Below are positions 31,477 through 35,332 of a stretch of DNA of 47,069 nucleotides, one piece after another (position 1 is the first letter of the stretch; every line of letters starts with the position of its first letter). Below the pieces are notes generated by a model. The model had not been told where the DNA came from and made no database searches. It saw nothing but the letters and a program-made list of their open reading frames with translations. The stretch covers positions 1-47,069 of the forward strand of contig RDNZ01000022.1 in the NCBI GenBank assembly GCA_011364905.1. Direction: 5' to 3'. This DNA is from Candidatus Thorarchaeota archaeon (GTDB taxonomy: Archaea; Asgardarchaeota; Thorarchaeia; Thorarchaeales; Thorarchaeaceae). Position numbers and translations under genes: made by a program.

Positions 31477-32808
31477 TCATTTCAGTTTGTGCTTCTTGAC
31501 AAACTCTGTTAGAACGTCCTCTAGATTCGGTCTGCCTATCTCCTGAAGATCATATCGAACTCTGACATTTGGTTTGTCAATCTTTATGACGCGATTGAGG
31601 TCAATCGGAGTTCCGATGACTATTGCTTCGGCATCTGATTCATTAATTGTCTTCTGAAGTTCTGTCATCTGTTTCTTCCCATACCCCATCGCTGGTAAGA
31701 CGTTCTCCAAATGCGAATACTTTTCGAAAGTGGCTTTGATGCTTCCCACCGCAAATGGTCTTGGGTCAATAATTATCGCTCCAGCTTTTCGCGCTGCAAT
31801 GTAACCTGCCCCATATCGCATTCCGCCATGAGTGACAGTAGGTCCATCCTCTATGACAATCACGCGTTTGCCTTTGATCTTCTCAATATCTGATATTGTG
31901 AGTGGAGATGCTGCATCGATGATTGTGGCTTGTGGATTCACAGACATGATGTCCTCTCTGACTTTTTCTATATTCTCATAATCAGCTGTGTCTTCTTTGT
32001 TGATAACAACGACATCAGCCATTCTCAAATTGGTTTCACCGGGGTAATATGAAATTTCATGGCCCGGTCTGTGAGGGTCTGTAATAACAATAAGTAGGTC
32101 TGGTTTGTAGAAAGGAAAGTCGTTATTGCCTCCATCCCACGTGATGACATCTGCTTCTTTTTCAGCTTGCTCTAGGATTTTGCCATAGTCCACTCCAGCA
32201 TAGAGGATGACTCCCATGTTTATCATAGGTTCGTACTCTTCACGTTCCTCAATCGTGCAGTGATACTTGTCCATGTCTTCTAGCTTCTCGTACCTCTGGG
32301 CAATCTGCGTGGTTAGGTCAGGATCATATGGCATTGGATGTCTGATATTCACTGGTTTAAGTCCCAAATGCACGAGAATCTGATTTACCCTTCTTGAGGT
32401 CTGACTCTTTCCACAACCAGTCCGGACAGCACAGACTGCTATGACCGGCTTTTTACTCTTAATCATGGTGTTTTTGGGTCCCATAAGTCGCATATCGGGC
32501 CCTAGACTATTCACCCATGCAATCTTATGACCCACAGTCTGGTAAGGTAAGTCAGAGTATGCTAGAATGCACTGCTCAACATCTAACTCCTTAATGAGCT
32601 CAGGTAGGTTCTTCTCTGGATAGATTTTAATTCCCTTTGGATAAAGAGGTCCCGCGAGCTCCGGCGGATACATCCTGTCCCCTATTCCTGGTATCTGTTC
32701 TGCTGTGAACGCAACGACATCGTAGTCTTCGTTGTTTCTGAAGAAGACGTTGAAGTTATGGAAATCGCGACCGGCTGCGCCCATAATAATGACTTTCTTT
32801 TTACTCAT
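31477..32808 (-). CDS. Cyclic 2,3-diphosphoglycerate synthetase-like P-loop NTPase (possible arginine synthetase)
   Basis: IIMGAAGRDFHNFN, AVRTGCGKSQT, RHPMPY, EEREEYE, WDGGNND, EDGPT.THGGM. Confidence 0.85.
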   Translation of the reverse strand: MSKKKVIIMGAAGRDFHNFNVFFRNNEDYDVVAFTAEQIPGIGDRMYPPELAGPLYPKGIKIYPEKNLPELIKELDVEQCILAYSDLPYQTVGHKIAWVNSLGPDMRLMGPKNTMIKSKKPVIAVCAVRTGCGKSQTSRRVNQILVHLGLKPVNIRHPMPYDPDLTTQIAQRYEKLEDMDKYHCTIEEREEYEPMINMGVILYAGVDYGKILEQAEKEADVITWDGGNNDFPFYKPDLLIVITDPHRPGHEISYYPGETNLRMADVVVINKEDTADYENIEKVREDIMSVNPQATIIDAASPLTISDIEKIKGKRVIVIEDGPTVTHGGMRYGAGYIAARKAGAIIIDPRPFAVGSIKATFEKYSHLENVLPAMGYGKKQMTELQKTINESDAEAIVIGTPIDLNRVIKIDKPNVRVRYDLQEIGRPNLEDVLTEFVKKHKLK

Positions 32809-32919
32809 CTCTAGCTTCACTCCGGGTCTTGAGAGGTTTCTATGGCTTTGGATTTTGAGTCAAGTTAAAAAATGTCTGGTCTAACCAAACGCAGATGCAA
32901 TGTAACGGTAGTTGTTAGC

Positions 32920-33016: not shown

Positions 33017-33159
33017 ATGTGTTATGTCAGTAATACCTTCGATAAATCGCAGTGTCTTGTATAATATGGGAATTACAAACCCATAAATACAGGATTGGAC
33101 AAATAAACTGGAAGTGTGCTCATTTGAGCAAGCCGCCGGATTTCACGTGGGGTGCATAG

Positions 33160-33711
33160 TTGAAGCTAGTTGATCTGGCCAAGGAGTCAGTTAGGGTCTT
33201 AAAGGAATGCGGGGATGCAGGAATCAGAAGTGACATTTTGGCTGAACGGCTGGATACCCCAAAGCGGCGTGTCTATGATATTATTGCTGTTCTAAAAGCT
33301 CTAGGCCAAGTAAGCACAACTCGAAAGTTTGATGGAACTATCGTTCGATGGATTGACAAGAGCAAAGACTTCGTTCCTCGTGAGTACTATTCTGAGCTAA
33401 AGATCCAACTTGACCAAGAGAGCAGCGAACGGAAGCATCTCCAAGTTCAGGTGGCTGAACTCAAAGAACAGGTTCGTATTTCTAAAATCAAACTACGCAG
33501 AGAATCGACAGCTGTTGAAATATCAAACAAGACCGAGTTCAATACAACTCAGCTTCGTGTCCGTGCTCTTTCAAGTAATGGAATAAAGAGTGTGAAACAC
33601 TCTGGCGTAGAAGTGAAGATTGAGACTCATGAAGCTGGAATGGTTGTAGATCCGTCAGAAATTGAAGTGGACGAAAAGAAAGCCTTAATCACCAAGCTTC
33701 AGCGTCTTTAG
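33160..33711 (+). CDS. E2F/DP-family winged-helix transcription factor homologue
   Basis: LAERL...KRRVYDIIAVL.ALG.V......IVRW carries the RRxYD signature; followed by a coiled coil and a beta-rich segment. Confidence 0.85.
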   Translation: MKLVDLAKESVRVLKECGDAGIRSDILAERLDTPKRRVYDIIAVLKALGQVSTTRKFDGTIVRWIDKSKDFVPREYYSELKIQLDQESSERKHLQVQVAELKEQVRISKIKLRRESTAVEISNKTEFNTTQLRVRALSSNGIKSVKHSGVEVKIETHEAGMVVDPSEIEVDEKKALITKLQRL

Positions 33712-33716
33712 ATAAT

Positions 33717-34106
33717 TCAATCTGTTAGCCGAATAGCAACCTGACTTCCTCGACGAACTGTGGCTAAGGCTTCAAGCTGTTTTTCATCAGATGTTATCTT
33801 CCCTATGATGTTCACCTGACTAAATGTCAGTTTATCTTTTAGATAGATATCCAGCGAATCACCAAGAGGCTGATAGGCTATATCGCCTTTTTTAACCTCA
33901 TTAGTTGGTTTCGCATTGCCCTTTGATATACCTAATGTGATTTTCATCTCATCACGCATGAAAGCAGTTCTACCTTCTAAGGGCAGGCGAAACTTGATCT
34001 CTTCAACAATGAGCGGTGCATAGATACGATTCAGAGTTCCTCTCAGTACCAAGTTTCCATCGAATACAAATTCTATCCGAAGATCAGTGTCGCTTAAATC
34101 GTCCAT
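33717..34106 (-). CDS. Cyclophilin-like fold protein
   Basis: LPLEG, VKKGDIAYQP.G..L.IY, VNIIGKI. Confidence 0.8.
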   Translation of the reverse strand: MDDLSDTDLRIEFVFDGNLVLRGTLNRIYAPLIVEEIKFRLPLEGRTAFMRDEMKITLGISKGNAKPTNEVKKGDIAYQPLGDSLDIYLKDKLTFSQVNIIGKITSDEKQLEALATVRRGSQVAIRLTD

Positions 34107-34189: not shown

Positions 34190-35332
34190 TTGGAGTGGTT
34201 TCGGCTGGCCTCCACCAAACTTGATGTAGCATTTGTTGTTGACACGACAGGTTCAATGAAGGACGATATCAAAGCAGTCAAGGACAGTCTCTTTGAGATT
34301 GTGGACCGTATTACCACAAGGACTGAGAATCTGGAGATACGATTCGGAGTAGTGTCCTACAGAGACCATCCTCCACAAGACAGGACATACGTGACACGAG
34401 TGTTTGATTTTGATGCAAAAGTAAAACGTGTTCACAAATTAATTTCCGATTTGAATCCCTCCGAAGGCGGTGATACTCCTGAAGCAGTGGCTGACGGTCT
34501 CTATGATGCTCGAACCAAGCTTTCATGGGAGCGAGATGCATACAAAGTTCTACTTCTTGTTGGAGACGCTCCGCCTCATGGAAGGACATACAATACCATT
34601 GGCGATGATTATTTCCCGGAAGGTTGTCCAAAAGGACATGATGCAATTACAGAAGTTCAACAAATGAGGACAGACTTCGGTAGCACAGTTTTCGTTTTTG
34701 TATGCGGATGCAATCCACTCGTTGAAGACTCATTTAGGCGAATTGCGGCATCAGTGGATGATGGACAATATTACTCTCTTCTCGATGCTCATGAACTTCC
34801 TGAGGCCATACTACGGATACTTGAAGGAGTGAGCGACTTAATCGAATCAGATAGGAAAGTGCTCACTTACTATGAGGCCAACGACGGTACTTTTGATATG
34901 GGTGACGCTGCATCCAACTTAAACTTGGAGCTAAGGGAGCTAAAAACATCCCTCTCACGCTTGCTCGAATTGGGCCGGATTGCCAGGTGGCCAAAAGGGA
35001 GACCGTTATCGACATCTCAGAAGGACCTGACAGTTGTTTTGGGAGAAATACCAAACAACATCGTTGCTGGAAAGGCTTTCAATTATACAATCAGAGTGAA
35101 GAATCCAAGCTCCACGGTTGTTGGTATTCGAGTAATTGCATCCATAGCTACTCCGGATGGCGTTTCCGAGGTCACAAATGAGCACCATGATATTAGCCCT
35201 AATGCAGACAAAAAACTTGAACTGAAGCTTGTGGCAATGACTGATGCCAAAGGAAAAGCATCTTTCAAAGTTGAAGTGTTTTATGGTTCGAGATCTGTTG
35301 CCGCAAAGATTTACAATACTCGAATATATTGA
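34190..35332 (+). CDS. vWA domain - wHTH - Ig-like domain protein
   Basis: DVAFVVDTTGSM, YRDHPPQD, GGDTPEAV, GDAPPHG; wHTH-like AASNLNLELRELKTSLSRLLELGRI; beta-rich C-terminus. Real start may be CTG 34205. Confidence 0.85.
   Translation: MEWFRLASTKLDVAFVVDTTGSMKDDIKAVKDSLFEIVDRITTRTENLEIRFGVVSYRDHPPQDRTYVTRVFDFDAKVKRVHKLISDLNPSEGGDTPEAVADGLYDARTKLSWERDAYKVLLLVGDAPPHGRTYNTIGDDYFPEGCPKGHDAITEVQQMRTDFGSTVFVFVCGCNPLVEDSFRRIAASVDDGQYYSLLDAHELPEAILRILEGVSDLIESDRKVLTYYEANDGTFDMGDAASNLNLELRELKTSLSRLLELGRIARWPKGRPLSTSQKDLTVVLGEIPNNIVAGKAFNYTIRVKNPSSTVVGIRVIASIATPDGVSEVTNEHHDISPNADKKLELKLVAMTDAKGKASFKVEVFYGSRSVAAKIYNTRIY

Follow-up and report, generated by a model that had tools for sequence, protein, structure and literature searches.

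That E2F, DP and Rb together control the genes of S phase is one of the defining traits of eukaryotes. A gene of 183 codons on a contig of a Candidatus Thorarchaeota archaeon (GenBank assembly GCA_011364905.1, contig RDNZ01000022.1, positions 1 to 47,069; this whole stretch of 47,069 nucleotides is called the window below) encodes a product that begins with a winged helix-turn-helix (wHTH) domain of the E2F/DP type. The question raised by the locus is how far the resemblance extends, i.e. whether it ends with the DNA-binding domain (DBD) or includes the dimerisation module and the target genes of the eukaryotic factors. A preliminary description, made from the letters of the window, proposed a complete order of DBD, coiled coil and marked box, from which a homodimeric ancestor of the E2F-DP heterodimer would follow.

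The gene itself adds nothing new. Homologues of E2F/DP from Asgard archaea were described by Eme et al. 2023 (Nature 618:992, PMC10307638; Supplementary Information 4.1.5, labelled arCOG02749 in file 6) and are mentioned as reported in a review. The table of eukaryotic signature proteins (ESP) in the former study holds the identical 183-aa sequence under Thorarchaeia_DZG_bin1_115, RDNZ01000022.1, gene 34, 33160-33711, with the same TTG start; the gene has therefore already been catalogued, and the guess of the preliminary description that such DBDs might have been reported from Asgards before applies to this very open reading frame (ORF). It is the single-copy Thorarchaeia member of a published family, of which the literature view is that the dimerisation domain is missing and that only the DBD is present, serving a different function. 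What goes beyond the literature is a conserved tail, a cyclophilin-like partner gene and sites of the TTTSGCGC type, all of them testable refinements of the published family. If confirmed, the pairing-type tail, the partner gene and the sites at promoters for deoxynucleoside triphosphate synthesis and MCM would sharpen the current picture, and together they lead to the testable hypothesis that a proto-E2F acting as a homodimer controls genes for DNA precursors and for replication.

The DNA-binding domain is a specific relative of E2F and DP

The N-terminal winged helix of the E2F-like protein is specifically related to the DBD of E2F and DP and retains their base-contacting RRxYD motif. In Pfam, residues 7-64 belong to E2F_TDP (PF02319), covering positions 9-63 of the 65 in the profile with 33.4 bits and E 3.7e-8; the cut-off is 25.7 bits, and no other family exceeds its own in this protein, the helix-turn-helix (HTH) family of TrmB reaching 14.3 bits. 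E2F_TDP is also matched by all 28 members of the family alignment, and the winged-helix fold of three helices and a beta hairpin is present. The pattern KRRVYD...VL..LG...W, on which the preliminary description had based its E2F/DP assignment, is fully in place (KRRVYD at residues 35-40, V44 and L45, L48 and G49, W64), and the profile match bears out the assignment itself. R36, R37, Y39 and D40 are invariant among the 28 members, down to 21% identity, and the motif R36-D40 aligns with RRIYD of E2F8 and E2F4. When the profile of the 28 members was searched against the sequences of the PDB at E<=10, E2F8 (4yo2, 2.2e-12), E2F4 (3.7e-7) and DP2 (6e-3) were matched; other wHTH families were not listed and the remaining matches were generic coiled coils. 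A comparison with fish E2F1 by hhalign gave 92-95% probability for the DBD.

A winged helix could also serve in a non-sequence-specific role, for example in a chromatin or nucleoid protein or in one binding unusual, Z-DNA-type DNA. The matches that support such a role reflect the common wHTH fold, whereas the DBD sequence matches only E2F/DP, the RRxYD motif is invariant, and relatives keep specific palindromes at defined promoters, as described below. We consider this explanation highly improbable.

E2F8, the best sequence match among solved structures, belongs with E2F7 to the factors that read their palindrome without DP, which the Asgard protein would likewise do. In contrast to E2F7 and E2F8, which carry two tandem E2F_TDP domains in one chain and no coiled coil-marked box (CC-MB) domain, the Asgard protein has one DBD and would need dimerisation. 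Its genome (3.08 Mb, 80.8% complete) contains one E2F_TDP match, no DP-like second paralogue was found at this completeness, and most Thorarchaeaceae genomes also have one match. The Asgard protein thereby differs from E2F1-6 and DP1/2, since one gene copy provides no E2F/DP pair, and a homodimer is therefore more plausible than a heterodimer.

Among 301 Asgard genomes, 127 are matched by the family profile, including 69 of the 76 in the source's own family and genomes of several other families, while the same search found no E2F-like gene in three large Asgard families (0/68, 0/28 and 0/21). The close homologues are 62-100% identical, almost all 183 aa long, and come from metagenome-assembled genomes (MAGs) of Thorarchaeota. 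When 1.84 billion cluster representatives were scanned exhaustively, only 35 matched at E<=0.001; hence, the family is narrow.

A coiled coil and a conserved beta module follow the DNA-binding domain

An AF2 model of the 183-aa protein was obtained from the 28-row alignment with a mean predicted local distance difference test (pLDDT) score of 83.5. It contains the DBD elements H3-20, H24-31, H35-47, E51-56 and E59-64, then a long helix (74-119), four strands (E131-136, E142-147, E152-156 and E161-166) and a final helix (172-182). The preliminary description had seen a heptad helix of about 40 aa behind the wHTH, and the helix 74-119 with its six heptads agrees with this. One heptad register runs along it, in which 66% of the a/d positions are hydrophobic versus 12% elsewhere (32 orthologues), the core LQVQVAELKEQ is nearly invariant in the same set, and in family members Pfam gives weak matches of the coiled coil to HALZ, bZIP_1, DivIC and ZapB.

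The strands 131-166 correspond to the beta-rich segment that had been noticed in marked-box position. The beta module to which they belong (125-168) is the best-conserved part of the protein after the recognition helix, with T125, E126, F127, R135, L137, S138, G141, E151, V152, T156, G160, V163, D164 and P165 invariant in the 32 orthologues. Reading the sequence against the model, hydrophobic and charged residues alternate along the strands, so the sheet has one hydrophobic face. The order of DBD, coiled coil and beta module is retained across Asgard families, in members down to about 27% identity. The RRxYD winged helix, the coiled coil, the strand-rich region and the similar total length are shared with E2F1-6 and DP1/2. 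In contrast to these, the Asgard protein lacks a transactivation or pocket-protein-binding C-terminal region, as it ends at residue 183, 15 residues past the beta module. A search for longer or fused archaeal forms gave only two vertebrate E2Fs. Compared with the published description of this same protein, the addition made here is that conservation across the family extends to a heptad coiled coil and a beta module.

Relation of the tail to the marked box of E2F and DP

In position, the tail corresponds to CC-MB. The DBD of fish E2F1 covers residues 129-192 and its CC-MB residues 206-299 (96 profile positions, the first of them 13 residues past the DBD), and the archaeal helix and strands cover residues 74-168 (~95 aa), beginning 9 residues past the DBD end at 64. 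When the full proteins were aligned with hhalign, residues Q9-95 matched E2F1 138-221 without large gaps, i.e. from the DBD through the first ~20 residues of the coiled coil. The tail probably also works like CC-MB in dimerisation and function. Its membership in the CC-MB domain family is a different matter and is unproven, as no test run supported it. Neither E2F_CC-MB (PF16421) nor DP (PF08781) was listed by Pfam at E<=10 for the 183-aa protein, and the 25 families matched most often by the 28 members include neither. CC-MB chains of E2F/DP were likewise missing among the PDB profile matches at E<=10. With an E2F profile built from fish E2F1 at 78-100% identity only, hhalign gave 0.5% probability for the tail versus the E2F1 CC-MB, and for the beta domain versus the marked box a score equal to the reversed control; this profile is shallow, and such sequence tests of marked-box homology are therefore weak. 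Our own profile-profile Smith-Waterman alignment reached a local score of 10.7 versus 12.1 +/- 2.2 for column shuffles, and the rotation and reversal controls also revealed no signal. A resemblance of the QLRVRA/LVMVIRA type that had been spotted by eye was rejected, being no better than chance in this comparison. At the level of folds, Foldseek and VIA-align listed only wHTH proteins for the whole model, with E2F/DP chains not among them; the C-terminal model gave nothing usable and no E2F/DP chain, and a search of the ESM Atlas with residues 70-183 gave no usable match.

That the tail is nevertheless a true homologue of the E2F/DP CC-MB, and the protein a homodimeric ancestor of the E2F-DP heterodimer, would agree with the same domain order and nearly the same length, with an alignment that runs on into the E2F1 coiled coil, and with the single gene copy. 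Moreover, an isolated beta module without a match to any closed fold is what would be expected of one half of an intermolecular sandwich. Against this stand the missing Pfam and PDB matches, the hhalign probability, a profile score below the shuffle mean and the absence of E2F/DP chains from the fold-search lists; in addition, the beta domain persists in relatives without a coiled coil, whereas coiled coil and marked box go together in E2F/DP. On balance, we regard such homology as unlikely. The descriptive points of the preliminary description all hold. Its marked-box claim is upheld in so far as a coiled coil directly follows the DBD and a beta-rich tail of similar length occupies the same position, while its homology part found no support in Pfam, PDB profile, hhalign, profile-alignment or fold searches. 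A C-terminal fold without relation to the marked box would have refuted the claim; the tail matched no solved fold at all, which neither confirms nor refutes it. It remains a difference from E2F1-6 and DP1/2 that the marked-box region of the Asgard protein has no detectable similarity to theirs in sequence or fold.

Candidate binding sites at DNA-precursor and replication genes

Genes for thymidylate synthase, ribonucleotide reductase (RNR) and MCM are classic E2F target classes. In Thorarchaeaceae relatives, sites of the TTTSGCGC type occur upstream of ThyA, RNR and MCM genes, as they do in the E2F1-6/DP1/2 systems. An exact TTTSGCGC lies at -300..+30 of the ThyA start in 16 of 30 Thorarchaeaceae genomes, amounting to 18 sites in 9.8 kb compared with a single one in the remaining 89 kb of these loci, and the core SGCGCS is found there in 26 of the 30. 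On its divergent side, ThyA is flanked by a thioredoxin-like gene and, behind this, the gene for the anaerobic ribonucleotide reductase NrdD. At MCM, TTTSGCGC is located at -80..-170 in 15 of the 30 genomes, with a density of 1.72 per kb versus 0.02 per kb. The background is given by 19 TTTSGCGC sites in about 337 kb of intergenic DNA of the source genome.

Three exact copies of the complete palindrome TTTSGCGCSAAA occur in the source genome, and exact 12-mer palindromes number 32 versus 6 for a reversed control pattern in 25 genomes of the genus. One copy (C5:1194) was discarded as a promoter site because it is inside an ORF. Two perfect palindromes are intergenic (TTTGGCGCCAAA; contig 47:96424-96435, equivalent to L015:1425-1436, and contig 32:25025-25036 in L014). 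The copy on contig 47 precedes an Alg14/Alg13 operon by 87 bp and an uncharacterised 284-aa gene by about 200 bp. For this Alg14-like paralogue, a comparison seeded with Alg14 and not with the site placed the site at -88..-124 in 8 of 9 true orthologues and in none of 20 paralogue loci. To the right of the contig 47 palindrome a conserved inverted repeat, CATACCC...GGGTAT, was seen, and the contig 32 palindrome stands between two genes without known function.

Some further features of these loci may be mentioned. In the source MAG, ThyA is cut by a contig end (contig 57:1-285), and contig 53 carries the only RNR found, a PF02867-type enzyme whose gene comes after a 264-aa gene on the same strand. 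In the ThyA loci of relatives (L031:1981-3246 and equivalents), two genes come after ThyA in its own orientation, one for an AsnC-type HTH protein of ~210 aa and one for a hexapeptide-repeat transferase; with the AsnC-type protein there is a second candidate for the control of the ThyA promoter. In other Asgard families, MCM open frames of 1095-1875 aa with a split Pfam MCM match (L197, L198, L203, L204, L208 and L209) suggest that MCM genes contain inteins in several Asgard lineages; with many MCM genes of this kind, the MCM starts fell outside the fetched loci.

A putative homodimeric regulator

From the DBD, the conserved layout of the protein and the distribution of sites we infer a model that we hold to be fairly probable. 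Two identical chains would pair through the coiled coil, with the beta modules as reinforcement; for the beta modules this is suggested by a single sheet with one hydrophobic face that matches no self-sufficient fold. The two recognition helices of the homodimer, each with its RRxYD motif, would then read the GCGC-core palindrome TTTSGCGCSAAA of the E2F type. In Thorarchaeaceae, the regulon would include DNA-precursor and replication genes by way of the divergent promoter between ThyA and thioredoxin-like-NrdD and the MCM promoter, with further sites before the Alg14/Alg13 paralogue.

The same architecture might also belong to a generic archaeal one-component regulator, in which the coiled coil alone dimerises and the beta module acts as sensor of a small molecule or binds a partner such as the cyclophilin-like neighbour, comparable to BusR- or TrmB-type proteins. 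The best Foldseek matches of the whole model were indeed chains of BusR from Streptococcus (a GntR-type wHTH, coiled coil and RCK_C; PDB 7b5t and 7oz3), which shares the domain order, and TrmBL2; 22 of the 28 family members show weak TrmB HTH matches, a conserved partner gene adjoins, and the beta domain is kept where the coiled coil is not. However, the likeness to BusR is architectural only (E 1.4e-3, but a TM score of 0.26 and a root-mean-square deviation of about 16 A), the wHTH is of another family, and the C-terminal domain is not RCK_C. Residues 120-183 gave no Pfam or NCBIfam match to RCK_C, a sugar-binding or any other sensor domain and no fold match, ACT and RAM included, and an open sheet of 45 residues is small for a ligand pocket. 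We consider a generic regulator of this kind rather improbable.

Several observations weigh against the proposed homodimeric regulator. First, two other Asgard families have homologues of 123 aa and 136 aa that consist of DBD, short linker and beta module without a coiled coil, which is a further difference from E2F1-6 and DP1/2, and the same applies to a Sifarchaeia sequence in the table of Eme et al. 2023. Hence, the DBD is constantly accompanied by the beta module, while the coiled coil is optional and not essential to the family. Second, the site evidence has its limits. The counts come from related genomes and are not independent observations, and site and factor are connected by correlation only. 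The family f9, with the E2F-like gene in 0 of 68 genomes, has no TTTSGCGC at ThyA (0/29 loci), which would speak for the model, but its G+C content of 29% confounds this contrast. In the E2F-positive family f19, none of 8 loci with ThyA-like matches from 6 genomes has a textbook site nearby; this family has only divergent ThyA-like genes, and f5 is without ThyA. At MCM, the textbook site was found in none of four other E2F-positive families (0/4). Third, no replication theme emerges in the source genome from the surroundings of its 19 intergenic TTTSGCGC sites, no such site accompanies the class I/II-type RNR of contig 53, and the 5' end of ThyA, NrdD and MCM, and hence their promoters, are unassembled. 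Finally, the promoter of the E2F-like gene itself contains no GCGC site, and none of its conserved upstream blocks is of the E2F type.

A stronger claim would be that coiled coil and beta tail are the direct ancestor of CC-MB, that the homodimer already controlled ThyA, RNR and MCM via TTTSGCGC, and that the cyclophilin-like neighbour served as its regulator. If this were true, the basic scheme by which the E2F regulon works at G1/S would be older than the eukaryotes themselves; we judge it to be a distinctly long shot.

The cyclophilin-like neighbour

The features of the locus are compiled in Table 1.

Table 1. Features of the E2F-like gene and its surroundings (positions within the window).
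Feature	Position	Strand	Basis
E2F/DP-family gene, 183 aa, TTG start	33160..33711	+	ORF call, Pfam, ESP table of Eme et al. 2023
Winged helix-turn-helix DBD, E2F_TDP (res 7-64)	33178..33351	+	Pfam
RRVYD recognition motif (res 36-40)	33265..33279	+	Invariance in family alignment
Coiled-coil helix, six heptads (res 74-119)	33379..33516	+	AF2 single helix, pLDDT 83-95; heptad register
Small beta domain, four main strands, one hydrophobic face (res 125-168)	33532..33663	+	AF2, conservation
C-terminal amphipathic helix (res 172-182)	33673..33705	+	AF2, pLDDT about 70-80
Shine-Dalgarno-like GGGGTG, 5 nt upstream of the start	33149..33154	+	
Cyclophilin-like gene PF04126, 129 aa, convergent	33717..34106	-	Pfam 1e-10
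Promoter and 5' leader blocks of the E2F-like gene, conserved in Thorarchaeaceae	33038..33143	+	28 orthologous upstream sequences side by side
Conserved upstream block TTCGATAAATCG	33038-33049	+	
TATA-like block ACAAACCCATAAATA	33075-33089	+	
Leader hairpin GTGCTC-ATTT-GAGCA	33116-33130	+	
Leader block GCCGCCGGATTT	33132-33143	+	

Each of the 16 loci fetched, which represent 9 Asgard families, has the cyclophilin-like gene next to the E2F-like gene in tail-to-tail orientation. In the seven families other than Thorarchaeaceae, where full-length tblastn matches put the identity of the E2F-like protein at 27-34%, the cyclophilin-like gene is the only common neighbour. The adjacency was also seen in further genomes compared by coordinates, with one tandem exception (G297), and in the genomes with two PF04126 copies that were compared (G041, G058, G020 and G007) the neighbour is the divergent, low-scoring copy. 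A phyletic co-occurrence of the two genes was considered and rejected, as the presence of PF04126 does not track that of the E2F-like gene; it is common in families without the latter, e.g. in 51 of 68 f9 genomes. Therefore, only gene order links the two, and on this basis the cyclophilin-like gene is a candidate functional partner.

The stop codons of both genes, TAG at 33709-33711 and TGA at 33717-33719 on the minus strand, are 5 bp apart, so that the convergent transcripts must overlap or terminate inside each other's gene. An antisense interplay between them could result.

Beyond the cyclophilin-like gene, which intervenes as the one small gene foreseen in the preliminary description, the vWA cluster begins at 34190. 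This linkage is not general, since the vWA gene is missing in 2 of 8 Thorarchaeaceae loci checked, and the vWA cluster and a divergent cobW-like gene neighbour the E2F-like gene only within Thorarchaeaceae. The latter encodes a 447-aa protein with a weak match to CobW/HypB-type GTPases (31477-32820, minus strand); it is present at 78-85% identity in each of the 8 Thorarchaeaceae loci that were checked, and the loci of other families lack it.

Start codon and upstream region

The TTG start of the E2F-like gene is directly preceded by an in-frame TAG (33157-33159), and GGGGTGCA is kept ahead of the start codon in orthologous loci. The start position is the same in orthologues, and the 'WGA' N-terminal extensions of some database entries represent the translated Shine-Dalgarno block. 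Further upstream, Thorarchaeaceae orthologues share TTCG(A/G)(A/T)AAATCG about 25 bp before the TATA-like block, and their leaders contain the hairpin GTGCTC-NNNN-GAGCA followed by GCCGCCGGATTT.
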